Of a DNA stretch of 35,494 nucleotides, positions 1-35,494 are shown in pieces. The stretch comes from a virus (Duplodnaviria; Heunggongvirae; Uroviricota; Caudoviricetes): IMG/VR virus record IMGVR_UViG_2724679140_000015. The stretch is one strand, 5' to 3'. The position numbers were made by a program, and so were the translations under genes. Positions within the stretch are counted from its first letter, which is position 1. Each line of letters starts with the position of its first letter. The notes beneath the pieces are model-generated. The model made no database searches and was not told where the DNA came from. It saw only the letters and a program-made list of their open reading frames with translations.

Positions 1-270
1 TTAATGAGCGTCGATAAATACAATCTTCAGGATAAACATCAGCGCAACGATGATTACGCACGGGCTAAGGTCACGCAGACGCCCGGTACCAATCTTCATC
101 ACGCAGTAGGAGATAAAGCCCAGCGCAATACCTTCGGTAATCGAAAAGCTGAACGGCATCATCACGGCGGTAATAAACGCCGGAACAGATTCAGTAAGAT
201 CCTGCCAGTTCACGCGAGCAAGACTTGAGGTCATCAACACGCCAACGTAGATCAACGCGCCAGCTGCAGC
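1..270 (-). pseudogene. 3' fragment of a host membrane transporter gene (resembles the C-terminus of NCS2/AzgA-type purine permeases), apparently truncated by prophage insertion
   Basis: Minus-strand ORF ending with a stop at 1-3; hydrophobic transmembrane-like sequence; the frame only stays open to ~327 by read-through into phage terminal sequence. Family assignment is from memory of permease C-termini. Confidence 0.4.
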
Positions 271-279
271 TGATGCGGC

Positions 280-312
280 GCGAGATAAATAACACAAAAA
301 AGCGAGATAAAT
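280..312. repeat. Two 11-bp direct repeats GCGAGATAAAT (280-290, 302-312), 22 bp start-to-start; candidate transposase binding sites at the prophage terminus
   Basis: Exact repeat read directly from sequence; the spacing matches the ~22-bp periodicity of Mu end-binding sites. Confidence 0.5.
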
Positions 313-466
313 GGAACAAGCTTTACGTTACGGATATTGAAAAAGAATTGCAATTTTACACAATAGCTTCAAACCTTAACCCTGGCCTCATCACTTGTAA
401 ATATCCATGTTATTCTTTTGTATCAACTAACCTGTAACAGAAATGCATATATTCAGACATACACCA

Positions 467-521: not shown

Positions 522-1142
522 CTATTCAGGTTTCTGAGGGAATTCGATGTCCTGGTTTATTTCTGGATTAACGTCACTAAGTCTTATTGTGTAGATCTCC
601 CACGCTTTAAGCAGTTCTTTTTCTTCATCTGATGCAAGTTCCAGACGAACTTTTCGCTCAAGCTGAGCGATGCGTGTTTCCGCTTCTTCTGATAACACTG
701 CTTTGTGTTTTCTGACAGCATCAATCCTGGCTTTTCTGGCTGCTTCTTTGTCCTCCACCCAGCGATGGCCATCCCATCTGTCAAATTCGCTTGTGGGTTT
801 GTGCATTGTTAATATTTCGGGCAACGGACCAATAAAATTAATGGTTACGGACTCTCTGGTTTGTGTATTAAAGGCTTCCATCCCACGATAATCGTCGACA
901 ATTTCCCAGGCTGTTCCATCTTCCGTGCGTCGAACCGCCTGACTGGCTTTTACTGGTAACTGAGGTTCATCCAGATATGCACCTTCTGACAGGGACACAT
1001 CGAACATGACATATTCCATGGTGGACCCCATGTATTCGCGTGTTACAGGATTAGCAAGGTAGCATTTAACCCATCCGGCCACGCTGGCCAGACCGTTATC
1101 ACCAATTTTTCCTTCCTGAATATTGACGTTATATTTTTGCAT
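522..1142 (-). CDS. tail fibre assembly protein (Mu U / P2 G-like chaperone)
   Basis: 206-aa ORF directly downstream of the tail fibre gene; C-terminal region fits the tail fibre assembly chaperone pattern. Confidence 0.55.
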   Translation of the reverse strand: MQKYNVNIQEGKIGDNGLASVAGWVKCYLANPVTREYMGSTMEYVMFDVSLSEGAYLDEPQLPVKASQAVRRTEDGTAWEIVDDYRGMEAFNTQTRESVTINFIGPLPEILTMHKPTSEFDRWDGHRWVEDKEAARKARIDAVRKHKAVLSEEAETRIAQLERKVRLELASDEEKELLKAWEIYTIRLSDVNPEINQDIEFPQKPE

Positions 1143-23373: not shown

Positions 23374-24117
23374 ATGACGCAGACACTGAATCCGGTCATC
23401 ACTGTCACCGTGTCCGGTCCTGTGGGCAGCGGTAAAAGTTACATATTGGCGCGGATAGAGGAAGTGGTGAAACAGGAATTCGGAAACAGCGTCATTGTCG
23501 ACGCCGCAGACGTGGACGGTGAGCGCCGTATGAGTGGGGGTGATCTGAGCACATGGCAGAAACCACGGGCAGGCACACTTATCCGACTGGAGGAATACAC
23601 AGAAAAAACTCCGATGTCATACAGCGAGGGATGCATTCTCCGGACGAATGCACTGCTGGATGTTATATGCCCCACAGGCCAGTACCCATGGACACTGCCC
23701 GATGCACTGCATGCCACTATTGCGGCACTGATGGCAGTTTACGATCAGGAGCTGCTCATGAAGGAGCTACGTAAACTCACTGGTCAGCCAACAGAATGTT
23801 TTTCGGCCCCGAAGTACGGGAAGCAGGAACACATCCCGGTGAACACAATCCCCGTTAACCAGCCTCCCCGGTTCTTCGACGAATACATTCTGACACCGGA
23901 AAATAAAGCTGAGCATGAAGTGATCAAAGAGGCGTTGTTCCGGGAAATCAGGAAGATTGCTGAAATGCAACTGGAGGGCGGGCTGGACAGAGTGATGGCG
24001 AGAGGAGAATGGGAATCGCTGTTTGAAAGAACTTCCCCGGAATTACTTCCCCTCGCACTGGCTATCGGGATTATGCAGACAGCGGATAAACCTCACTTAC
24101 GTTCATTAAACACGTAA
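23374..24117 (+). CDS. small P-loop NTPase/kinase-like protein, function unknown
   Basis: Walker A-like GPVGSGKSY near N-terminus; GAGGAG RBS 8 nt upstream of ATG. Confidence 0.5.
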   Translation: MTQTLNPVITVTVSGPVGSGKSYILARIEEVVKQEFGNSVIVDAADVDGERRMSGGDLSTWQKPRAGTLIRLEEYTEKTPMSYSEGCILRTNALLDVICPTGQYPWTLPDALHATIAALMAVYDQELLMKELRKLTGQPTECFSAPKYGKQEHIPVNTIPVNQPPRFFDEYILTPENKAEHEVIKEALFREIRKIAEMQLEGGLDRVMARGEWESLFERTSPELLPLALAIGIMQTADKPHLRSLNT

Positions 24118-24497
24118 CTCATAATCCGGGATACGCGTTCAGCGATGACTGCATTTTCACCGGTTTTTACTGCATCCAGAAGTGACTCTTTAAATGGTGC
24201 GGGCCGGGGCTGCAGAAGGGTCGGCGTGGCATTGAGCAGACGGAGCGTTTTTTCCGTGAGGACGACATCAGCCGCTCCCACAGCCAGCAACTGAGAGTAA
24301 CGAATATAGCTGTTATCCCGAAGCCATATCAGCGTATCAATAAAATACCGGCACTTTTTCTGGTCGTGATCAACCTGGTCCGGGATATCGAAAAAACCAG
24401 AATAAATCAAAACCTGAGGTGCCGGATGCGTGTTCAGTAATCGGCAGAATATTTTGCCGGTGAGTGCATAAAAATCATCATTTAAGGAGTGCATCAT
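24093..24497 (-). CDS. hypothetical protein, paralog 1 of a duplicated ~130-aa family
   Basis: Shares several conserved blocks with 24963-25343 (e.g. IFxRL, DTxxWLxxxxY, LNATP). Confidence 0.45.
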   Translation of the reverse strand: MMHSLNDDFYALTGKIFCRLLNTHPAPQVLIYSGFFDIPDQVDHDQKKCRYFIDTLIWLRDNSYIRYSQLLAVGAADVVLTEKTLRLLNATPTLLQPRPAPFKESLLDAVKTGENAVIAERVSRIMSYVFNERK

Positions 24498-24711
24498 GAA
24501 TCCCCGATTAACGTTAACAGAACATCAGCGCCGTGCTGAAGCAGTGAACAATGTTCTGGAAGATATTATCCGGTTACATCGCGGAGAACTGAGTGTCTGT
24601 CGTGCCACAGTTCATTTTCAGGAAATACAAAAGCAGTTTGATACTTCTGTTTTTGCAGAAGGTATTACTTATGCCCTGGACCAGATAAGGTCAGAAAATC
24701 GCCCCGGATAA
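24496..24711 (+). CDS. hypothetical 71-aa protein
   Basis: Strong AAGGAG RBS 6 nt upstream of ATG; start overlaps the divergent start of paralog 1. Confidence 0.35.
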   Translation: MNPRLTLTEHQRRAEAVNNVLEDIIRLHRGELSVCRATVHFQEIQKQFDTSVFAEGITYALDQIRSENRPG

Positions 24712-24902
24712 TCCCTAAACCACATTAACAGAAATCACTTCATCCCTGCCGCATCATGAAAGAACGACCAGCCCGGTGCTTCGGACCCACCGGGCTGGCC
24801 ATCGTCCCACAGAAGTGGCTGTGAGCCGACCGAGGTTCAGTCAGTCTCGCGAGACCAGACTAGCCTGCCATATTTTTAATAATTGTAAAATGTTTACAGA
24901 TT

Positions 24903-24956
24903 ATGAAAACGCAGACATTACCCATCGTTCCATGGATTGGTGGCAAACGCTGCCTT
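24903..24956 (+). pseudogene. truncated remnant of a Dam-like methyltransferase N-terminus
   Basis: MKTQTLPIVPWIGGKRCL matches the N-terminus of the intact gene at 25538 (MKEQSLPIVPWIGGKRRL); frame diverges and stops at 25004; upstream ~85 bp also duplicated. Confidence 0.45.
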
Positions 24957-24962
24957 GCGATA

Positions 24963-25343
24963 TTACATAAGACCACGAGACATATATTGCAGACCTATTC
25001 CTAGAGTCTGGCTAACCAGTGATCGCAACGCTTCTTTCCCTTCAATTTTTATAGAGTCAGATATTCTGGCCCCCAACGGTTTTTCCAGACTTCCAGGCGT
25101 AGCGTTTAATACCTCAAGACCTTTAGCCGTTAGCACTGCGTTGTGGATCCCCCCAGAACTACGCGCCCCGATTAAATAGCCACTGTTTTTAAGCCAGTCT
25201 ACGGTATCAAGAAAAAAAGTAAGTTCATTCTGTCTAACGATATCAACTGCCTTTATATCAATTTTGACGGGGAAAGATTCGTAGAGTCTCCCAAATATCT
25301 CACCAACTATTTCATTAAACCGCTCAATATTTTTTGGGGCCAT
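24963..25343 (-). CDS. hypothetical protein, paralog 2 of the duplicated ~130-aa family
   Basis: Likely start at internal ATG (MAPKNIERF...) at 25343; ORF-track start at 25427 probably over-extended. Confidence 0.45.
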   Translation of the reverse strand: MAPKNIERFNEIVGEIFGRLYESFPVKIDIKAVDIVRQNELTFFLDTVDWLKNSGYLIGARSSGGIHNAVLTAKGLEVLNATPGSLEKPLGARISDSIKIEGKEALRSLVSQTLGIGLQYMSRGLM

Positions 25344-25537
25344 GGTATTAGTAACTCCCTTTAATTGTCGCCCATGAAATATGCAAATAACATGAAAAGA
25401 GCGACTCACCTTGTGCAGCGAACACAAGGCGAGTCATCAACTTACAGGTATGAGCTGTGAGTCAACCGAGGCTCTTCCGTTCTCGAGAACAAGGGAAGCC
25501 TATCGCATTTTCATCTAATGAAAAAGGCTTACAGATA

Positions 25538-26302
25538 ATGAAAGAACAATCTTTACCCATCGTCCCCTGGATTGGGGGAAAACGTCGTCTGGCCAAACAC
25601 ATTCTGCCCCAGTTCCCACTCCATACCTGCTATGTGGAGCCATTCTGCGGCGCAGCAGCACTTTATTTTCTCAAGACTCCCAGCAAGATCGAAGTCATTA
25701 ACGATATCAACGGTGAACTGGTAAATCTGTATCGGGTAGTAAAGCATCATCTGGAAGAATTTGTCCGCCAATTCAAATGGGCGCTGGTTAGCCGGCAGAT
25801 CTACAAATGGCAGCAGATCACCCCGGAAGAAACACTGACGGATATCCAGCGTGCGGCACGGTTCTACTACCTCCAGAAGCAGGCGTTTGGGGGCAAGGTG
25901 GCAGAGCACAGCTTCGGCACCTCCACCACCTCCCCGCCACGCTTCAACCTGCTCCGGATTGAAGAAGAACTGTCAGCGGCACACCTGCGGCTTTCCAGAA
26001 CGGTGATAGAACACATGGACTGGCACCAGTGCATTAAGCGTTATGACCGTCCGCACACGCTGTTCTACTGTGATCCGCCCTATCTGGGGACGGAAGGCTA
26101 TGGTGTGGATTTTCCTGAAGAGAACTACACACTACTCGCAGAACTGGCACGGTGCATCAGAGGAAAGATGATTATCTCGGTGAATGACATTCCGCAGATG
26201 CGTCGGGTGTTCACTGAACTGAACATACAGACGGTGAATATCAACTACAGTCTGGCGGGGAAACCCACGCCGCGCCGTGAACTGGTAATCTGCAACTTCT
26301 GA
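25538..26302 (+). CDS. orphan Dam-like N6-adenine DNA methyltransferase
   Basis: N-terminal PWIGGKR and FCGAAA (AdoMet-binding-like) and catalytic DPPY motif; start at ATG 25538 preferred over GTG 25457. Confidence 0.7.
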   Translation: MKEQSLPIVPWIGGKRRLAKHILPQFPLHTCYVEPFCGAAALYFLKTPSKIEVINDINGELVNLYRVVKHHLEEFVRQFKWALVSRQIYKWQQITPEETLTDIQRAARFYYLQKQAFGGKVAEHSFGTSTTSPPRFNLLRIEEELSAAHLRLSRTVIEHMDWHQCIKRYDRPHTLFYCDPPYLGTEGYGVDFPEENYTLLAELARCIRGKMIISVNDIPQMRRVFTELNIQTVNINYSLAGKPTPRRELVICNF

Positions 26303-26308
26303 AACAAA

Positions 26309-26333
26309 ACCGGAAAGCACAATGCTTTCCGGT
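26309..26333 (-). terminator. hairpin (11-bp stem) followed by T-rich tract on the minus strand; likely terminator downstream of the repressor gene
   Basis: CCGGAAAGCA-CAA-TGCTTTCCGG read directly; minus strand continues TTTTGTTTC. Confidence 0.4.
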
Positions 26334-26418
26334 AAACCAAACAACTTCCACTATGTCACTGGCGATGTTTTCTGAAAGCATCCAGATCAACCACGCGCCC
26401 TTTGTGTCCAGGTCAAAA

Positions 26419-26757
26419 TCAGCCTGCGAGTTTGCTTGGTTTGGGTTGAATGAAGACTTTGCCGACCTCAAGAATTGCCCTCCGTTGTTCGGGGCTCATT
26501 TCGTCGAATGCATCCATTAACTCTTTCTTTTCTTGTGACACATAAGGTGCAACAACAGGCTGACTCCGCACCCCAGTAACTACATACAAAATATCTACAC
26601 CGATTTCTGATAGTGCAGATAACTGCACTGCAGTAGGAGAAGTGCGATCTTTTTCCCAATCAATGAAAGTTCTCTTTGCCACACCTATAGCATCAGCCAA
26701 CCCTTGCTGTGTAAGAGATAGACGCTCTCTTTCTTCTTTAATACGTAACCCGATCAT
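26419..26757 (-). CDS. phage repressor, XRE-family helix-turn-helix
   Basis: HTH-like LSLTQQGLADAIGVAKRTFIDWE; divergent from the ner-like gene; start at ATG 26757 preferred because the ORF-track start (26910) overlaps ner by 50 bp. Confidence 0.5.
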   Translation of the reverse strand: MIGLRIKEERERLSLTQQGLADAIGVAKRTFIDWEKDRTSPTAVQLSALSEIGVDILYVVTGVRSQPVVAPYVSQEKKELMDAFDEMSPEQRRAILEVGKVFIQPKPSKLAG

Positions 26758-26781
26758 GTGAGTTTTTCTGCACTCTTTAAG

Positions 26782-26810
26782 TTGACTGGTGAGATAATCT
26801 GCACCATAAT
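26782..26810 (+). promoter_or_regulatory. candidate early promoter (TTGACT-17 bp-CATAAT) with repeated ATAATCT motifs (operator candidates)
   Basis: Sigma70-like hexamers read directly, ~45 bp upstream of the ner-like start. Confidence 0.35.
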
Positions 26811-26857
26811 CTATCACACATAAGGCAAACATCATTGCATCAACAAAGGAGACAACG

Positions 26858-27046
26858 ATGACTGCAGAACAAGTCAAAGCTCTCTTCCGCCAGCGCGGGA
26901 TCACCTTCACCCGCTGGGCAGAAGAAAACGGCTACAACCGCAATGAGGTATACCGCGTTCTCAATGGGCAGACCAAAGCCCGTTACGGTAAATCCCATGA
27001 AATCGCCGTGAAGTTGGGGCTGAAATCAACAGCTCAGGCAGCCTGA
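26858..27046 (+). CDS. ner: Ner-like DNA-binding protein
   Basis: 62-aa ORF with Ner/Nlp-like pattern; AAAGGAG RBS 5 nt upstream; first gene of the rightward early block. Confidence 0.55.
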   Translation: MTAEQVKALFRQRGITFTRWAEENGYNRNEVYRVLNGQTKARYGKSHEIAVKLGLKSTAQAA

Positions 27047-27098
27047 AGATTTTGAGTCTTTGTAAAAGGTTATCACATATCGCAAAAGAGGTATGCAG

Positions 27099-27407
27099 AT
27101 GAGTAAGACGAATGTTTCAAGCTCCGGCAGTCGCATCCTCCGGGTACTCAAAGCGCTGCGCGGTCATGCCCTGAACGGTATTTCCAACGGTGAACTGGCG
27201 GCAGCACTGCACGAGTCACCGGCAAACATCAACCGGGCACTCAACACCCTCATTGAAGAAGGGTTGGCCCTGAAACTGGAAAACGGGCGTTTCGCGCCGG
27301 GCATCCAGTTACTGCAGATCGCTATGGCCCACAGTAACGAGATGGCACGTGCACAGGATCGCATTAACGAAATCAACCAACGTGTCATTTCAGGTAGTCG
27401 TTTGTAA
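27099..27407 (+). CDS. putative winged-helix DNA-binding protein
   Basis: RILRVLKAL...ISNGELAAAL...INRALNTLIEEGL resembles a MarR/IclR-type wHTH; RBS AAAGAGG 7 nt upstream of ATG 27099. Confidence 0.4.
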   Translation: MSKTNVSSSGSRILRVLKALRGHALNGISNGELAAALHESPANINRALNTLIEEGLALKLENGRFAPGIQLLQIAMAHSNEMARAQDRINEINQRVISGSRL

Positions 27408-27417
27408 GGAGTAATAA

Positions 27418-28329
27418 ATGGGACGCACCAAATCACCGATTAACACTGAACTGAACGCCGAGGTACCGCTGTCGGATGATCTCAATGTCAGTCTGAACGC
27501 CATGACACAGCATCGCATGGAGATCATGCAGCAGTTTGGCGATGGTCAGCCCTATGAGCGTGATCGCATAGTTCATGAGGCTCGGTTTTATATGGCACAG
27601 AGCGCTGAGGCCATGCTGGAAGCAGGTAAACGACTTATTATTCTCAAAGAAAATGAACCACACGGGGACTTTGTTGGAATTGTAGAAGAACAACTTGGTC
27701 TGCATGTGCGCGCAGCACAACGAATGATGAAAGCATCTTTGAAATACCTTTCACCAAAACTAGAGCCAAAAGCGACAACGTTGTCGCTTTTAGGTAAGGC
27801 AAAATTATTTGAACTTGTTGCTGAAGATGACGACGACCTTGCTGAACTGGCCGACGGCGGCACAGTCGCAGGACTGACGCTTGACGATGTTGATCGCATG
27901 TCAGTACGTGAATTGCGTCAGGCCCTGCGCGAAGCGCGCGAAACCAACGCAGCACAACAGCGCGTACTCGCCGACAAAAATGAAAAAATAGACTCACTCT
28001 CCACCAGACTGGAGAAGAAATCCCGTATTCAGCCGCCTGAGCCTGATGAGGAGGTTAAGAAGCTGCGGGCGGAAGTAACAGCATTAGCGGTTGAGGCGGA
28101 ATCTGCTATCGCCGTTCGACTGTCCAGCGCTTTTGAGACACTGTGCGCATATTGTGCTGAAAACATGATTGATACCCCCAGAGATTTCATGGCAGGCCTG
28201 GTCTGTCAACTGGAAAGCACAGCGCGTAGCCTGCGCTCCACATTTGACCTGCCGGACGAGCCAACAGGCAATGCAGCGCCTTCATGGCTGACTGAGCCGA
28301 CGCCACAGATTAACGGGCTGGAGGCATAA
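27418..28329 (+). CDS. hypothetical early protein
   Basis: 303-aa ORF with TAAGGAG RBS; sits between ner and the transposase gene. Confidence 0.4.
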   Translation: MGRTKSPINTELNAEVPLSDDLNVSLNAMTQHRMEIMQQFGDGQPYERDRIVHEARFYMAQSAEAMLEAGKRLIILKENEPHGDFVGIVEEQLGLHVRAAQRMMKASLKYLSPKLEPKATTLSLLGKAKLFELVAEDDDDLAELADGGTVAGLTLDDVDRMSVRELRQALREARETNAAQQRVLADKNEKIDSLSTRLEKKSRIQPPEPDEEVKKLRAEVTALAVEAESAIAVRLSSAFETLCAYCAENMIDTPRDFMAGLVCQLESTARSLRSTFDLPDEPTGNAAPSWLTEPTPQINGLEA

Positions 28330-28332
28330 CCA

Positions 28333-30102
28333 ATGAATGCTGCCCTGACTGAACGACTGGTTTATGTCGCCCGCGCGGCACGTGACGCGGGGCATGGTAA
28401 ACGCGGTGCAATATACGACGCTGCCTGTGCTGAACTTGGCATGTCCCGCGCCACTCTGCTGCGCAGGCTGAAGGAGGTCTCTGTGACTGATAAACGCAAA
28501 AAACGCGCCGATGCCGGGCGCAGCGCCCTGACCCGCGACGAAGCCGCGCTGATATCTGCCACACTGCGTGAGGCCACCCGCAAGAACGGTAAGCGTCTTT
28601 ATTCCATCGCGGATGCAGTGGAAACCCTGCGGGCTAACGGCTTTATCTCCGCAGGCAGAACAGATGAAACCACCGGTGAGTTTTTCCCGTTGTCCGAAGA
28701 TGCCATCAGTCGTGCCCTGCGTAACTATGGCCTGCACCCGGAACAACTGGATGCCCCTGCACCGCATACCGAAGTGGCCAGTCTGCACCCCAATCATGTC
28801 TGGCAGATTGACGCCTCACTATGCACGCTTTACTACCTGAGCAATGGACATAAAGGGCTGCAGGTGATGGACAGCGCGAAATTCTACAAGAACAAGCCCG
28901 CTAACCTTGCCCGTATCGCCAGTGACCGCGTGTGGAGTTACGAGATTACCGACCATGCCAGCGGCTGGATTTACGTTGAGTATGTGACGGGTGCGGAATC
29001 CGGTGAGAACCTGTGTTCTGTGCTTATCAACGCCATGCAGGAGCGCGGTGGCGCAGACGTGCTGCACGGCGTGCCGAAAATACTCTATCTCGACCCCGGT
29101 TCGGCGAACACCGCGGGTATGACGAAAAACATGTGCCGCTCACTGGGCATCGACCTGATAGCGCACAGGCCGCATAACGCCCGCGCCACCGGACAGGTGG
29201 AAAAGGCGCGTGACATTATCGAACGCAAGCTGGAGCCGGGTCTGAAGTTCCGGCCGGTTCACAGTCTGGAAGAACTCAACGCGCTGGCCGCGAAATGGCG
29301 CAGCCACTTTAACGCCACGGCTGTTCACAGCCGCCACGGTAAAACCCGCACGGATATCTGGCTGAAGATTACTGCTGAGCAGCTGAAAAAAGCGCCTTCC
29401 GTTGAGGTATGTCGTGAACTGGCTGTGGCGGCACCAGAACTCCGCAAAGTCACGCCAAAACTTCGTGTCTCGTTCCGGGGCACTGAATTTGACGTATCAA
29501 CGGTACCGGGCGTACTGGTCGGTGAAAAACTGATGATTACCCGTAACCCGTGGCGCAGCGATGTGGCACAGGTGGTTCTGACCGGTGAGGACGGCCACGA
29601 GACGTTCTTCCTGGTCGAAGAGGTCAGAAAGAACGAGTTTGGCTTTGCTGAAGGCGCGGCGGTATTTGGCGAAAGTTACAAAGCCCTGCCGGAAACCCCG
29701 GCGCAGATGGCGGCAAAAGAAACCGAAGCGCTGGTCACCGGTACAGACAACGCCGCAGATGCAGCTGCCGCACGCAAGGCGAAGGCACTGCCGTTCGGCG
29801 GACGACTTGACCCGTATAAACATATTGATGACGCCACACTTCCGGCCTATATGCCGAAGCGTGGTCAGGCCTCTGACGTACGCGGGCCGCGCACTGAACA
29901 ACGTCCCATGACTCATGTGGAGGCCGCGAAAGCCCTGCGCGATAAGTTCAGCGCCAACGGCCTTACCTGGACGCCGGAACATTACCGCCAGTTAACGGCA
30001 CAGTACCCGGACGGCGTACCGGAAGCCGCACTGGATGAAGTCATGGCCACGCTGACCACGCCGGTCCGCAGCAGTGTTATCAGCATTGTTAACGGCAACT
30101 GA
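28333..30102 (+). CDS. DDE transposase A (retroviral integrase-fold)
   Basis: 589-aa ORF with N-terminal HTH-like region and catalytic-core-like WQIDAS...ITDHASG motifs; followed by the ATPase gene. Confidence 0.75.
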   Translation: MNAALTERLVYVARAARDAGHGKRGAIYDAACAELGMSRATLLRRLKEVSVTDKRKKRADAGRSALTRDEAALISATLREATRKNGKRLYSIADAVETLRANGFISAGRTDETTGEFFPLSEDAISRALRNYGLHPEQLDAPAPHTEVASLHPNHVWQIDASLCTLYYLSNGHKGLQVMDSAKFYKNKPANLARIASDRVWSYEITDHASGWIYVEYVTGAESGENLCSVLINAMQERGGADVLHGVPKILYLDPGSANTAGMTKNMCRSLGIDLIAHRPHNARATGQVEKARDIIERKLEPGLKFRPVHSLEELNALAAKWRSHFNATAVHSRHGKTRTDIWLKITAEQLKKAPSVEVCRELAVAAPELRKVTPKLRVSFRGTEFDVSTVPGVLVGEKLMITRNPWRSDVAQVVLTGEDGHETFFLVEEVRKNEFGFAEGAAVFGESYKALPETPAQMAAKETEALVTGTDNAADAAAARKAKALPFGGRLDPYKHIDDATLPAYMPKRGQASDVRGPRTEQRPMTHVEAAKALRDKFSANGLTWTPEHYRQLTAQYPDGVPEAALDEVMATLTTPVRSSVISIVNGN

Positions 30103-30112
30103 GGAGGAAAAC

Positions 30113-31279
30113 ATGCTGGTACTGAAGCAGCAACTGAAAGAGGCCCGTATCCCACAGGCGGTGGTGGCGAGAGCTGTCGATGTTTCTGAGGCCACGCTGG
30201 CCCAGATTGTGAATCATAACGCGTGGCCCCGCACCCGCCCCGGAGAAGTGCGCCGGCGTCTTGCGTCCTGGCTGGAAAGTCAGGGGATTGATACAACGAA
30301 GAGTTTTGATGCTGTACAGGGCGCGGCCACGCCCCGTACAGCGGGTACCACAGATAAAACGAGCCTCAGTGAGGAAGAGAATATGTTACTCAAAAAACAG
30401 GTGTTATTTCCAGCAACCAAAAAAGCGTTTGGTCTTTTCCGTGACCCGTTCGCCGACGAAGCCATGCAGGGTTCTGATGATGTGTTCACCACCCCGGACA
30501 TCCGCTATGTGCGTGAAGCGCTGTACCAGACAGCCCGTCATGGTGGGTTTATGGCCGTCATCGGTGAGTCCGGTGCGGGCAAATCCACGCTGCGCCGCGA
30601 CCTGACTGAACGAATCAACCGCGAGAATGCGCCGGTAATTGTTATCGAGCCATACGTCATCGCTATGGAAGACAACGATGTGAAAGGGAAAACTCTGAAG
30701 GCAGCAGCGATTGCCGAAGCCATTATCAGTACCATTGCACCACTGGAAAGCATCAGACGCAGTCAGGACGCCCGCTTTCGCCAGTTGCATCGCGTCCTGA
30801 AAGACAGCAGCCAGGCGGGGTTCAGCCACGTTCTGGTGATTGAGGAGGCCCACAGCCTGCCCATTCCGACACTGAAACACCTCAAACGCTTTTTTGAGCT
30901 GGAGTCCGGTTTCAAAAAACTGCTGTCCATCGTGCTGATTGGCCAGCCGGAACTGGCGACAAAACTGTCTGAACGCAATATGGAAGTCCGTGAAGTCGTT
31001 CAGCGCTGTGAGGTGGTCGAACTTCTGCCTCTGGACAATCACCTTGAAGAGTTTCTGACGTTCAAACTGCAACGGGCCGGTAAACAACTGACGGACATTA
31101 TGGACGCCAGCGCAGTGGATGCCATACGTGCCCGCCTGAGCAATCCGGGAAGTCATCGTAAAAACAGGGTCAGCCTGCTGTATCCGCTGGCCGTCAGTAA
31201 CCTGGTAATAGCCGCCATGAATCTGGCTGCTGAAATCGGGGTTCCACAGGTCAACGCTGACGTTGTCAAAGGGGTTTAA
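30113..31279 (+). CDS. transposition ATPase B (AAA+, MuB/TniB-like)
   Basis: Walker A GESGAGKST; N-terminal HTH-like segment; GAGGAGG RBS 5 nt upstream of ATG 30113. Confidence 0.7.
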   Translation: MLVLKQQLKEARIPQAVVARAVDVSEATLAQIVNHNAWPRTRPGEVRRRLASWLESQGIDTTKSFDAVQGAATPRTAGTTDKTSLSEEENMLLKKQVLFPATKKAFGLFRDPFADEAMQGSDDVFTTPDIRYVREALYQTARHGGFMAVIGESGAGKSTLRRDLTERINRENAPVIVIEPYVIAMEDNDVKGKTLKAAAIAEAIISTIAPLESIRRSQDARFRQLHRVLKDSSQAGFSHVLVIEEAHSLPIPTLKHLKRFFELESGFKKLLSIVLIGQPELATKLSERNMEVREVVQRCEVVELLPLDNHLEEFLTFKLQRAGKQLTDIMDASAVDAIRARLSNPGSHRKNRVSLLYPLAVSNLVIAAMNLAAEIGVPQVNADVVKGV

Positions 31280-31281
31280 TA

Positions 31282-31551
31282 ATGAAATCCACCACAGGTA
31301 TCAACCAGCAAATCAGCAAAGTGCTGTCAGCCATTATGGCGCTTAAGGCGACGAACACGGATGTACAAAGCATCACCATCAGGGGTAACAAACCTGTCAT
31401 TCGCGTTTCCAGGAGTGCGCATTGCATGCGCATGCTTGAGCAGGGGAAAGCCAGTTATCTGTATACCGGTCATGACCACAGGGGACATTTCCGTCAGGGC
31501 GTTTTCGAACTGCACGGCTGTCGCGTCGTGTGGCCGGAATCTCTGTGGTAA
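31282..31551 (+). CDS. hypothetical early protein
   Basis: 89-aa ORF starting 2 nt after the B stop. Confidence 0.35.
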   Translation: MKSTTGINQQISKVLSAIMALKATNTDVQSITIRGNKPVIRVSRSAHCMRMLEQGKASYLYTGHDHRGHFRQGVFELHGCRVVWPESLW

Positions 31552-31578
31552 TCAGCACAACAGGAGGAGTCATAAAAT

Positions 31579-32109
31579 ATGGCAAAAAGTACAAAAGGGG
31601 CAAAACGTATCAAGGCCGCAGCAGCACTCTGGGTGCCGGGGACACGTGAAGAGGTCATTGAGGGAATCAGACTGCTCGGTGACGCACAACGTGAACTGGT
31701 CAGGGCTGAAACAGAAATGAATGACGCCATTGGCGATATCACCGCTCGTTATGCCCCGCTCACCGAGAGCCTGAAAAAACGCATGGCCGAACTGCAGTCC
31801 GGTATCCAGACATGGTGTGAGGCGCACCGTGACGAACTGACCGGCAACGGGAAGGTGAAGTTCGCTAACCTCACCACTGGCGAGGTGCAGTGGCGAAACC
31901 GTCCACCGTCAGTCAGCATTCGCGGGGCGGATAATGTTATTGAACTACTGAGACGTCTGGGGCTTGAGCGCTTTATTCGTGTAAAAGAGGAAATAAATAA
32001 AGACGCTATCCTGAATGAAAAAGAGGCTGTGAAAAATATTCCCGGTATTACCATAAAAAGCGATATTGAGGATTTTTCAATAATTCCTTTTGAACAGGAT
32101 GTGCAGTAA
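31579..32109 (+). CDS. gam: host-nuclease inhibitor Gam (Ku-like DNA end-binding protein)
   Basis: Near-colinear similarity to Mu Gam as I recall it (MAK...KRIKAAAA, ETEMNDAI, RPPSVSIRG, IEDFSIIPFEQ). Confidence 0.8.
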   Translation: MAKSTKGAKRIKAAAALWVPGTREEVIEGIRLLGDAQRELVRAETEMNDAIGDITARYAPLTESLKKRMAELQSGIQTWCEAHRDELTGNGKVKFANLTTGEVQWRNRPPSVSIRGADNVIELLRRLGLERFIRVKEEINKDAILNEKEAVKNIPGITIKSDIEDFSIIPFEQDVQ

Positions 32110-32206
32110 ACACACCACGTTAATTATTTAATAAAAACATTTTCTTTTTTATTCCGGCGTCAGCGCCGTGGGCTTCTGCACGCCGGAAACAGAGGAGAAT
32201 TAAATC

Positions 32207-32401
32207 ATGATATTTAAATGTATTCAGTGCGAGAGGGATATAACAGCCCTGCGTTTTCACAGCGCCATCGCCGTGATGTCCGGTAAGTACCACGTACCTG
32301 CAGTACGTGTCACCCTGGTCTGTCCGTACTGCAGCCAGCATTTTTCGGCGGACGTGCCCGTCATGGAATTCTCCCGCCCTGACAGGGAGGACGCGCAATG
32401 A
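32207..32401 (+). CDS. small zinc-ribbon-like protein
   Basis: CxxC ... CPYC pairs in 64 aa; AGAGGAG RBS. Confidence 0.35.
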   Translation: MIFKCIQCERDITALRFHSAIAVMSGKYHVPAVRVTLVCPYCSQHFSADVPVMEFSRPDREDAQ

Positions 32402-32670
32402 TTACCCCACAGGAAGCACGACAGCGCACCCGACTCCTTGTTGAACACTATGTCAACGAGTGTGAATGCCGCGACCTCACTGATGTGAAGCACGTCCTGA
32501 CGGCGCTAATCAGCATGGCCGCTCAGGCCATTGTGGCGACCAACGGAAAGGAGGCTGCCCTGCAGGTACTGGTGAACACACTCACCCATACGGCACAGCA
32601 CGAAGTGCCGTACCGGATGGAAACCACTGCAGAAGGCAACCTGAACATCACCGTCGATCGGAAGCACTGA
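32398..32670 (+). CDS. hypothetical protein
   Basis: 90-aa ORF translationally coupled to neighbours. Confidence 0.3.
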   Translation: MITPQEARQRTRLLVEHYVNECECRDLTDVKHVLTALISMAAQAIVATNGKEAALQVLVNTLTHTAQHEVPYRMETTAEGNLNITVDRKH

Positions 32671-32679
32671 GGGCGCGGC

Positions 32680-32982
32680 ATGACACGTAACACCATACGC
32701 ACACGCACCGCCCTCTATCGTCTGGCCCTGCAGCGTTTCGGGCCGGATGCACAGTCACTGAAACTGACAGAAGAGGCCGCTGAACTGGCAGCCTGTGCTG
32801 CCCGCAACCTGAACGGACAGGGCAGCGAAAGTGACCTCGCGGCAGAACTGGCAGACGTGGAAATCATGACAGAGCAGTTGCGCCTTCAGGGGATGGACCG
32901 ACTGATTGACTTCCACAAACAGAAAAAACTGGAACGCCTTGCCGCACGGCTGGGCGTCACATACACCGGAGAAATCATATGA
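32680..32982 (+). CDS. possible MazG-like nucleotide pyrophosphohydrolase
   Basis: EEAAELA ... ELADVEIM pattern resembles the EExxE...DxxD signature of small all-alpha NTP pyrophosphatases; weak. Confidence 0.35.
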   Translation: MTRNTIRTRTALYRLALQRFGPDAQSLKLTEEAAELAACAARNLNGQGSESDLAAELADVEIMTEQLRLQGMDRLIDFHKQKKLERLAARLGVTYTGEII

Positions 32983-33362
32983 ACTGCACTGAACAGACGC
33001 CACAACTGACGCCTGAAGATGTTGCACAGCGTATTCGGGTACTGGAAGACGAAAACGAATACCTGCGCAAGAGATTTGAAGAGGTGGACCTGTACTTCGG
33101 GCGCAATCTGGTTGTCATGAAAGCTGCAGTGATTGAGTGGCGGGCCACCGGTGATGCCAGGAACGGCATGGCGTGGATTTACAACACCCTGTGTGGGCCG
33201 GGCGAACTGCCGCCGCAAGAGGAGAAAGAGGCACAGGAATACTTCAACAGGGAAACTGAAGTTATCGACAGAAAACTGGCTGCCCTGTACCACTGGTTCA
33301 GGAAATACCACAGGACACACGCCGCACCTGACCAGACCACCACAGGAGGTACCGGTGACTGA
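32979..33362 (+). CDS. hypothetical protein
   Basis: 127-aa ORF, coiled-coil-like N-terminus. Confidence 0.3.
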   Translation: MNCTEQTPQLTPEDVAQRIRVLEDENEYLRKRFEEVDLYFGRNLVVMKAAVIEWRATGDARNGMAWIYNTLCGPGELPPQEEKEAQEYFNRETEVIDRKLAALYHWFRKYHRTHAAPDQTTTGGTGD

Positions 33363-33570
33363 CACCATTATGGAAATTGTGGTATGGGCTTTCCTGCTTA
33401 CTGGTATAGCCGTGTGCATCTGCGCCGGATTCGCCCTGGTTGCCCTGCTGACCCACGTGGTGACGCAGTGGTTGTGGGTAAAGCTTAAAGCAGCATACAG
33501 CCTGAAAGAGCTGTCCGACGCTGTTCGGGCATGGGAACAGCAAAAAAATACCGGAGATACTGAACAATGA
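33355..33570 (+). CDS. small membrane protein
   Basis: Single hydrophobic helix; GTG start 5 nt after AGGAGG; ORF-track start at 33133 is probably over-extended. Confidence 0.3.
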   Translation: MTDTIMEIVVWAFLLTGIAVCICAGFALVALLTHVVTQWLWVKLKAAYSLKELSDAVRAWEQQKNTGDTEQ

Positions 33571-34250
33571 CAGACCAGGATAAGCACATTGAGAAACTGA
33601 AAAAGTTGCTGGCGCTGGCAGCATCCGGCAACCCGCATGAGGCTGCTCTGGCACTGCGCCGCGCCCGTAAACTGATGGATGTTCACGGCATCACACATTC
33701 CGACATCGCCATGAGTGATATTGATGAAACCATCAGTCACTACTGGCCGACAGGCAGCCTCCGTCCGCCGCGCTACATGCTGGGCCTGATGAACATCATC
33801 CGCGAGGCATTTGGTGTTAACTCCATCATTCACCCCGGCACATATCCGGGTGTGGGGTTCTACGGCAACCGGGAACGGGCCGCACTGGCTGCGTACACCT
33901 GGGAAGTGCTGGCCCGTCAGCTGAAAAAGGCGCGTCAGCAGTATATCAGTACACAGAACAAAAGAATAAAAACCGCCACCCGCACCAGCCGTGGAGACCA
34001 GTTTGCTGAAGGCTGGGTGCTGGCCGTTATCAGTGAAATACAGTCCTTCGCCCTGACCGATGACGAACGTGAACTGATGCAGCAGTGGCTGGAACATAAA
34101 TACCCGCAGACGCAAACCACCAGGGCGCGTAAACCGGGAAGAAGTCGCAATGGCGACACCTCGCGCTATGCGGGGTTTCGAGAAGGGCAGAACGTCAGAC
34201 TGCACCGACCGGTCAGTGGGCGGGAACAGCAGAAACTGGAGGCCAGATGA
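33567..34250 (+). CDS. DUF2786-like phage protein
   Basis: N-terminal IEKLKKLLALAASGNPHEAALALRRARKLM matches the hallmark of that family as I recall it. Confidence 0.45.
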   Translation: MTDQDKHIEKLKKLLALAASGNPHEAALALRRARKLMDVHGITHSDIAMSDIDETISHYWPTGSLRPPRYMLGLMNIIREAFGVNSIIHPGTYPGVGFYGNRERAALAAYTWEVLARQLKKARQQYISTQNKRIKTATRTSRGDQFAEGWVLAVISEIQSFALTDDERELMQQWLEHKYPQTQTTRARKPGRSRNGDTSRYAGFREGQNVRLHRPVSGREQQKLEAR

Positions 34251-34477
34251 TGACGTTATCAGGTAACAGCCGGAAATTAAAAGCCTGCCGAATATCTGCC
34301 AGATACCTTTTTGCCCGCGCCTTTTTTAAGAACGTCAGGCCGGGGATCACAATTGGTGTTATTGCCGGACGCGAACAGGTTGAAAAATATATGTCAGGTG
34401 CATGGTGGAATAACGACCCAGTCATTGCTGCCCGTAATATTCATATCAGTTGGGGGGATATTCAGAATGACGGCTGA
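34247..34477 (+). CDS. hypothetical protein
   Basis: 76-aa ORF, translationally coupled. Confidence 0.3.
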   Translation: MMTLSGNSRKLKACRISARYLFARAFFKNVRPGITIGVIAGREQVEKYMSGAWWNNDPVIAARNIHISWGDIQNDG

Positions 34478-34682
34478 ATCTGTTGTATGTGCCCTGTTCT
34501 GGTATTGTTTTGTCGGTTGGTGTACTGCTGAACTGCAGCGCCGTTCAGGGTTTTATTCACGTTACAGTGGTGCCGGCTACTGGATTAGCTGGTCGGTGAT
34601 GTTCCTGTGCTGGCCTGTGGCGCTTCCTTTATATGTCGATTATATCGGTGGCGCAGGTAAAAGGAGCAACGATGATGACTAA
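34467..34682 (+). CDS. small membrane protein
   Basis: Two hydrophobic, Trp/Cys-rich segments; start at internal ATG 34467. Confidence 0.3.
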   Translation: MTAESVVCALFWYCFVGWCTAELQRRSGFYSRYSGAGYWISWSVMFLCWPVALPLYVDYIGGAGKRSNDDD

Positions 34683-35124
34683 ACAACGTCTTATCCAGCT
34701 CATTCATATTGCCCGTAATGAACTGGGTATGGATGAAGACACCTACCGCCAGATGTTAGAGGGGCTGACCGGTAAAGCCTCAACCAAAGGAATGGATACC
34801 ACACAACTAAACTGCGTGCTGGAATCCATGAAAAGGAAAGGCTTTCGCGTTAAGCCTGCCGGAAAAGCCAGCTCCGGTTTACAGCTGGATAACCATCCGC
34901 AGTCCAGGAAAATCCGTGCGCTATGGCTTGAAATGGCTGCTGCCGGCATTGTTCGTGACCGTTCAGAAAATGCATTAGCGCGGTGGATCAAGCGGGAAAC
35001 GGGCATCAGCGCCCTGCGCTGGCTCAGTACTGAACAGGCAAGCAGTGTTATTGAGAAACTGAAGAAGTGGCAGCGCAGAGCTGCGGGAGTAAAACATGAG
35101 CGACCTGAATCAGTTTCGAAGTAA
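34672..35124 (+). CDS. GemA-like protein (Mu gp16-like)
   Basis: Located immediately upstream of the Mor-like gene as in Mu; AAGGAG RBS 5 nt upstream of ATG 34672. Confidence 0.5.
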   Translation: MMTKQRLIQLIHIARNELGMDEDTYRQMLEGLTGKASTKGMDTTQLNCVLESMKRKGFRVKPAGKASSGLQLDNHPQSRKIRALWLEMAAAGIVRDRSENALARWIKRETGISALRWLSTEQASSVIEKLKKWQRRAAGVKHERPESVSK

Positions 35125-35494
35125 AGGGCCGGAACTCCTGGTGGAACTGGCACAGCATACCTCTGAGACCGTTCGCGAGATTATTGATATTGAGCCCGCA
35201 ATTGCCGACCAGATTGGTCAGGCCGTCGCGAACCGAATGATGCAGGTCTGGGGCGGGCAAAACGTTTATTTCCCGATGGGCATGGTATGGAAGGTCAGTC
35301 AGCGCGACCGGGAAATCTTCAGGGAGTTTAACGGACGCAACCACCACGAACTGGCCCGCAAGTTTGGTGTTTCGCTTCAGTGGGTCTACAGCGTGGTTAA
35401 GCGGGTCAGAAAAGAAGAACTGGATCGGATGCAGGGCAGGTTGTTTGATGAAGATCTGCCAGAGGAGACGAAAGACGTTAACAAATCCAGATAA
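35096..35494 (+). CDS. mor: Mor-like middle-operon transcription activator (Mor/C family)
   Basis: 132-aa ORF with C-terminal HTH-like region (GRNHHELARKFGVSLQWVYSVVKRVR); position after gemA-like gene. Confidence 0.55.
   Translation: MSDLNQFRSKGPELLVELAQHTSETVREIIDIEPAIADQIGQAVANRMMQVWGGQNVYFPMGMVWKVSQRDREIFREFNGRNHHELARKFGVSLQWVYSVVKRVRKEELDRMQGRLFDEDLPEETKDVNKSR

Follow-up and report, generated by a model that had tools for sequence, protein, structure and literature searches.

Position 271 of the 35,494-nt stretch of DNA analyzed here (the window) is, with high confidence, the right, tail-fiber-proximal end of a ~36.3-kb Bcepmuvirus-type transposable prophage that entered codon ~356 of Escherichia coli adeP by DDE transposition. 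The evidence for this assignment comes from the exact junction with the host gene, from the recovery of the opposite prophage end and a 6-bp target duplication, from the transposition genes carried by the element, and from paired repeats that recur at the termini of related prophages.

Junction with adeP and the opposite prophage end

By megablast, positions 1–270 of the window matched the 3′ end of E. coli adeP (adenine permease), on the minus strand, with 100% identity in thousands of E. coli chromosomes, and the minus-strand ORF spanning 1–297 translates into the C-terminus of a membrane protein. When we aligned this segment to the intact adeP gene annotated in NZ_CP033401, the match broke off precisely at base 270/271, past which intact adeP reads GTAGCCTGGCACC... 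whereas the window reads TGATGCGG.... The host segment (1–270, minus strand) holds the last 89 codons and the stop codon of adeP, and the prophage severs this 3′ fragment from the 5′ part of the gene. A preliminary description of this DNA had placed a prophage terminus at ~271 within a host permease gene, with a terminal sequence, TGATGCGGCGCGAGATAAAT, beginning at 271; both proposals hold, and the alignment of positions 1–270 to an intact permease that it recommended fixed the junction at 270/271. The identical adeP/prophage junction was present in at least eight further independent assemblies (at least nine including the window), indicating that it is real and inherited rather than an assembly artifact. 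The insertion would have inactivated adeP and, given the identical junction in at least nine assemblies, would have been passed on vertically. An exact look-up of the fiber-assembly protein returned only contigs with this same adeP junction.

The other prophage end lies 1,108 bp past the window and was recovered from a metagenome contig, ERZ777306 NODE-424, by searching metagenome contigs with a gapped pattern that combined the Mor-side end with the expected adeP sequence. At its junction this contig reads ...TGTCTGATCA / TGCAGC / GTAGCCTGGCACC, so that adeP resumes, and its prophage tip, ...ATTTATCTCATGTCTGATCA, directly precedes TGCAGC. This contig supplies the matching inverted terminus that had been proposed as a check on the reading. 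The phage part of the contig was identical to the last 885 nt of the window at 885/885 positions. The two junctions stem from different assemblies, the window and ERZ777306, which we infer to represent the same lineage from the shared adeP position and the 885 identical phage nucleotides; in the lineage of the window, the sequence ~1.2 kb past 35494 would read ...CATTTATCTCATGTCTGATCA, followed by TGCAGCGTAGCCTGGCACC (adeP). Because TGCAGC flanks both prophage ends, with the left copy at 265–270 and the second copy beyond the other end, outside the window, the target duplication is 6 bp. The candidate put forward earlier, GCAGC at 266–270, was correct in locating a host duplication there but was one base short. 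The resulting prophage length (35,224 + 1,108 = 36,332 bp) agrees with that of a stand-alone 36,344-bp contig (Logan SRR12801209_156) that starts 2 nt outside the 271 terminus. As this contig holds the whole prophage by itself, the prophage ends may be branch points in that sample, possibly caused by multiple insertion sites or by a mixture of occupied and empty sites. The contig is also the one hint seen here that the element may transpose replicatively and package variable host DNA at its virion ends.

An exact-protein look-up with Mor identified eight E. coli relatives, each at a different chromosomal site, and in all eight the prophage terminates 1,108 bp beyond Mor in ...CGTTATTTATCTCACGGATCCCCCTTCATTTATCTCATGTCTGATCA (tip ...ATTTATCTCATGTCTGATCA), after which comes unrelated host DNA. 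The presence of relatives at many unrelated loci bears out the earlier suggestion that such elements insert into random genes. In the 1.1 kb missing from the window, the relatives carry just two ORFs, of 210 aa and 53 aa. Both junctions could be read for three relatives in complete genomes, and these showed 6-bp duplications of CGGGTA, GCTAGT, and ACTTTA. Among the matches listed in scans of IMG/VR (see below), six of the seven contigs with both ends were likewise flanked by 6-bp duplications (ATTTAC, TACCGG, GGCTGC, ACTAAA, AAGACA, and GCCAGT). Thus, the duplication was 6 bp in all ten resolved independent family insertions, comprising that of the window and nine others. Mu leaves a 5-bp duplication, unlike the prophage in the window, and 6 bp is the footprint of B3/Tn552-family transposases (PMC8705779).

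Two of these IMG/VR contigs deserve separate description. The one pair of seven, among the matches listed, that has no flanking duplication belongs to the 41.2-kb IMGVR_UViG_3300020048_000249 (L156/L161), which has two family-type ends. In IMGVR_UViG_2698536570_000003 (L124/L103; 17158–24850), a pair of family ends bounds just 7,693 bp and has the AAGACA duplication on its flanks, and this element is probably an internally deleted derivative of a BcepMu-type prophage.

Transposition genes and family membership

The late operon occupies the minus strand from 522 to 23276 and encodes fiber-assembly, fiber, P2-like baseplate, tail, and sheath, and Mu-like head genes; its last gene (522–1142, minus strand) encodes a tail-fiber assembly chaperone (Pfam Caudo_TAP; PHROG 105). 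The early operon lies on the plus strand from 27093 to 35494 and encodes an HTH regulator, a DUF3102 protein, an rve transposase, an AAA_22 ATPase, Gam, GemA, and Mor. The window runs out at the Mor stop codon, and Mor adjoins the far prophage end. Between the two operons is a divergent region (23374–27050), presumably the immunity region, which contains genes for a Dam-type D12 methyltransferase (25457–26302) and an HTH_3 repressor-like protein (26419–26910, minus strand); relatives carry two alternative repressor alleles in this region, of 152/112 aa and 135 aa.

The enzyme that we infer to act on the terminus is a 589-aa DDE (rve) transposase (28333–30102, plus strand; Pfam rve only; PHROG 310). 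It was 69% identical over its full length to BcepMu gp09 (581 aa, E = 0), which is annotated as 'Tn552/IS1604 rve transposase' in AY539836. The adjacent AAA+ ATPase (30074–31279, plus strand; AAA_22; PHROG 296 'DNA transposition protein'), a predicted transposition partner and putative functional analog of MuB, resembles AAA_22/ExeA proteins by Pfam and was 60% identical to BcepMu gp08 over 405 aligned positions (E = 2e-167); its ORF is drawn here from a GTG start, and the gene call in relatives is 388 aa. BLASTP detected no similarity between the transposase and MuA (best E = 0.48) or between the ATPase and MuB (E = 2.6). Pfam searches of the transposase found rve and neither of the MuA domains (Mu HTH end-binding and Mu-transpos_C). 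A profile built from 11 family transposases and run against PDB sequences recovered retroviral integrase cores and IS21, with no MuA, and sequence and profile searches of the PDB with the transposase returned generic DDE cores, with no specific structural template.

The ORF map and Pfam content of the window are collinear with the AY539836 annotation of BcepMu, read backwards. This BcepMu-like gene order and the transposase and ATPase homologies, taken with the lack of MuA and MuB similarity, identify the element as BcepMu-type rather than Mu-type, and since BcepMu numbering puts the fiber side at the right, 271 marks the right end of the prophage. The closest known systems are BcepMu (Bcepmuvirus, AY539836) and its SalMu/PhotoMu/ChromoMu-type prophage relatives, with Escherichia phage PhiKM (PQ738613) and Klebsiella phage KP12 (OM835952) as the nearest records. 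PhiKM, the nearest of all and classified as Bcepmuvirus, shared 93% nucleotide identity with the window over 84% of 24.7 kb. The PhiKM record is a permuted 'partial genome' in which Mor-side and fiber-side regions join internally (locus ~13.9–14.5 kb), and a short ORF beside this join carries the annotation Fe2+ ABC transporter permease; because the deposit is permuted, the termini of the record are not the phage ends.

Like BcepMu, the prophage in the window has a block of Mor, GemA, and transposase genes pointing outward at one end, a Mu-like head, and P2-like tail and fiber genes at the other end. It differs from BcepMu in its host, E. coli, and in lacking the acyltransferase gene (gp53) at its fiber-side end. 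TG...CA ends and an Rve core are typical of BcepMu relatives (PMC2628397). As these systems are described, the element also resembles Tn552-type transposases and that of Pseudomonas phage B3 in its rve core, TG...CA ends, and 6-bp duplication (PMC8705779 for the duplication). Mu (Muvirus, AF083977; attR with MuA sites R1–R2) shares with the window's prophage TG...CA termini, near-random target sites, and homologs of Mor, GemA, and Gam. B3 is a siphovirus and differs in genome organization. In Mu, the early region, with the repressor and transposase genes, lies at the left end and shares its direction of transcription with the late genes; in the prophage studied here, by contrast, the early region has the opposite orientation and Mor lies by the far end.

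Architecture of the prophage ends

Read inward from 271, the terminus consists of TGATGCGGCGC-GAGATAAAT-13 nt-GAGATAAAT. The terminal 11-mer TGATGCGGCGC (271–281, plus strand), which contains the 5′-TG, is of a 'GC-type' specific to the fiber-side end in this family. The 9-bp repeat GAGATAAAT follows in two plus-strand copies, an outer copy at 282–290 (nt 12–20 from the tip) and an inner copy at 304–312, 22 bp from the outer one, which are putative transposase-binding sites 1 and 2. The preliminary description had recognized them as two GCGAGATAAAT repeats, and these are indeed found at 280–290 and 302–312, 22 bp from start to start; its expectation that they serve as end-binding sites agrees with their coincidence with the conserved paired end sites of the family. 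In the 35.5-kb window, GMGATAAAT occurs only twice, both times at the terminus, compared to 0.31 occurrences expected, and 5 of 100 shuffles reached two.

The Mor-side end, read inward, is TGATCAGACAT-GAGATAAAT-14 nt-GAGATAAAT and is inverted relative to the end at 271. Both ends of the prophage are composed of TGAT, 7 nt, and two GAGATAAAT sites, inverted to each other, and the termini are 5′-TG...CA-3′. BcepMu has the same architecture, with TGAAGAGAGGT-GAGATATTT-14-GCGATATTT at its Mor-side terminus and TGAAGCGCGGC-GCGATATTT-14-GCGATAAAT at its fiber-side terminus. The pattern common to these ends is TGAW, 7 nt, and two direct G(A/C)GATAWWT repeats 22–23 bp apart (a 13–14-nt spacer). Two scans of IMG/VR with TGA[AT]-N7-GMGATAWWT-N12-15-GMGATAWWT gave at least 242 matches, and the position of the outer repeat (nt 12–20) is kept in the other end of the prophage, in the E. 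coli relatives, in BcepMu, and in these at least 242 IMG/VR ends. Among the 242 matches listed, 105 lay within 400 nt of the start of their locus and pointed inward, compared to 8 that pointed outward. Of the 185 unique ends among the matches listed, 121 have a 14-nt spacer, and 52 share the 13-nt spacer of the window end. Although the 22-bp spacing at 271 differs from the 23 bp of BcepMu and the E. coli relatives, it occurred in 38 of 105 unique GC-type ends among the matches listed (23 bp in the other 67) and is therefore a common variant. We also looked for a third transposase site, by analogy with Mu L3/R3, and found that the motif, allowing up to one mismatch, was not enriched beyond the two sites within 250 nt in 181 unique ends.

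Sorting the ends into fiber-side and Mor-side classes by their neighboring genes revealed a strict asymmetry. Among the IMG/VR matches listed, fiber-side ends started with TGAWGCGSSGY in 34 of 34 cases (20 unique), and Mor-side ends carried a purine-rich block, TGATTAGACAT for example, in 41 of 41 (26 unique). Positions 5–11 differed by side in all 46 unique classified ends (L028–L267, among the matches listed), with GCGSSGC on one side and, for example, TAGACAT on the other, and the 9-bp repeats were common to both. We found no mention of this terminal asymmetry in a limited body of open-access literature that did not include Summer et al., 2004 and Toussaint and Van Gijsegem, 2018.

The 271 end had originally been compared to the right end of Mu. 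Mu attR (AF083977), read inward, is TGAAGCGGCGCACGAAAAAC..., and the Mu right-end sequence given in the preliminary description matches it. In ungapped comparison, the window end was identical to Mu attR at 10 of 11 terminal positions and 29 of 50 positions overall; the terminal 11-mers, TGAAGCGGCGC in Mu and TGATGCGGCGC in the window, are one base apart, and the family consensus is TGAWGCGSSGC. As in Mu attR, the first of two direct sites begins at nt 12 and the second lies 22 bp farther in (Mu R2 is ACGATAAAT, compared to GAGATAAAT in the window). We scored Mu attR on a position matrix from the 38 unique, 22-bp-spaced GC-type ends among the matches listed, against a background of 93,372 43-mers. 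Mu attR scored 17.8 bits, the best non-self score of the 93,372 43-mers, and ranked 60th of 93,372 when only the matrix columns not fixed by the search pattern were counted; Mu attL gave no score on this fiber-side-end matrix, and the Mu left end bears no resemblance to the fiber-side end of the family. At the level of nucleotide sequence, the likeness of the family's right end to Mu attR exceeds chance and is confined to the fiber-side end. This likeness is absent from the proteins, from the duplication length, and from the conserved CGAAAR core of MuA sites. Each end of Mu has three MuA sites, with the consensus core CGAAAR. The prophage in the window, unlike Mu, has two sites per end, and CGAAAR is not the conserved part of the sites in its family. 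Thus, the comparison with the Mu right end was apt in that the likeness goes beyond chance and the feature is topologically a right end, but the element belongs to the BcepMu family and not to Mu.

A non-coding stretch (313–521), of which ~313–355 is weakly similar to relatives and the remainder is unique, separates the end sites from the last late gene; the stop codon of the fiber-assembly gene is 251 bp from the prophage tip. A blastn search with 271–560 found no match among complete E. coli genomes (5,426) or phage records (50,697); the terminal sites by themselves are too short to be picked up by BLAST in databases this large. Only the first 45–85 nt of the window's end match other family ends, and the segment beyond ~355 (to 520) had no match in the ~240 family loci that we fetched either. 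Beside their fiber-side end, the E. coli relatives have a gene for a Gin-like recombinase together with an invertible fiber cassette; both are absent from the prophage in the window, which has 250 bp of non-coding DNA instead. In minus-strand RNA, a perfect 13-bp inverted repeat forms a hairpin at 467–506, 16 nt downstream of the fiber-assembly stop codon, with a folding energy of −31.6 kcal/mol in an 86-nt context (z = −5.4). The hairpin lacks a U-tract and may either terminate the late operon or stabilize the RNA. Rfam identified no family in 200–620, and a promoter and terminator consensus scan of 1–700 gave nothing above the shuffle expectation.

Proposed mechanism, alternative readings, and implications

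The position and conservation of the 9-bp repeats suggest that they are transposase-binding sites. In the mechanism that we propose from these sequence features, the rve transposase would bind both repeats at each end; the repeats are two helical turns apart, which places both on one face of the DNA. The transposase would then pair (synapse) the ends and nick 3′ of the terminal CA, and the 3′-OH ends would join target phosphates staggered by 6 bp. The neighboring AAA+ ATPase would deliver target DNA, as MuB and TniB do, and gap repair or replication would yield the 6-bp duplication.

Might the end at 271 instead be a true Mu-family attR, the right end of a Muvirus prophage with MuA and MuB? 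The 11-mer one base away from that of Mu, the 29/50 ungapped identity, the rank of Mu attR as the best non-self match of 93,372 43-mers to the fiber-side-end matrix, the homologs of Mor, GemA, and Gam, and the seemingly random insertion are all as such a prophage would have them. We nonetheless regard this reading as extremely improbable, as the transposase lacks MuA domains and showed no resemblance to MuA by BLASTP (E = 0.48), nor did the ATPase to MuB, the duplication is 6 bp rather than 5 bp in all ten insertions that could be resolved, the early operon is inverted, the tail is P2-like, and the end sites number two rather than three and have a different core motif. The transposase comparison and the 6-bp duplication refute Mu-family identity. 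It is equally hard to sustain that 271 is an attL/attR junction of a site-specific prophage that uses adeP as the attachment site of a tyrosine or serine integrase. Every contig with this fiber-assembly allele does have the same adeP junction, but no integrase lies near either end, and the serine recombinase of the relatives is a Gin-type invertase beside an invertible fiber cassette; this recombinase is absent here. Moreover, near-identical relatives occupy at least eight unrelated loci, and the flanking 6-mer differs at every site, identifying it as a target duplication and not as an att core.

Somewhat more weight, at a level we would still call unlikely, can be given to the possibility that the prophage has decayed into an immobile remnant, with relic repeats at its ends, and that the missing gin and invertible cassette and the unique 250 bp reflect erosion. 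The segment at 355–520 had no match anywhere searched, the gin cassette found in relatives is missing, and a single insertion site has been seen for this variant. Set against these observations, the two ends are intact, their repeats are perfect, and the 6-bp duplication is clean. Full-length ORFs encode the transposase, the ATPase, and all the late-gene products that we inspected. In one sample, the prophage assembled by itself, in a contig of 36,344 bp whose end lies 2 nt outside the terminus. Because gin is missing from BcepMu as well, absence of this gene does not signify decay.

The prophage bounded at 271 adds a new member to a family of transposable prophages that is well known and very widespread, and because this kind of element is already familiar, the finding is right in outline but ordinary. 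Its value lies chiefly in annotation, as it provides an exact BcepMu-type boundary, corrects the family from Mu, and sets the duplication length at 6 bp. BcepMu-type prophages are very common in enterobacteria, and prophage finders often truncate them; the pattern TGAW-N7-GMGATAWWT-N13/14-GMGATAWWT together with a 6-bp duplication is a practical rule for delimiting such elements. For the host, the insertion has left this E. coli lineage with adeP as a pseudogene. As a tentative and rather doubtful proposal, the fiber-side termini of the BcepMu family and of Mu (TGAWGCGSSGC and two sites ~22 bp apart), whose transposases are not recognizably related in sequence, may share ancestry or a functional constraint, and the strict asymmetry may encode a functional difference between the ends, such as the order of synapsis or of cleavage, or the side of packaging. 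The conserved left/right terminal asymmetry and the likeness of the family's right end to Mu attR are small leads for understanding transpososome assembly.
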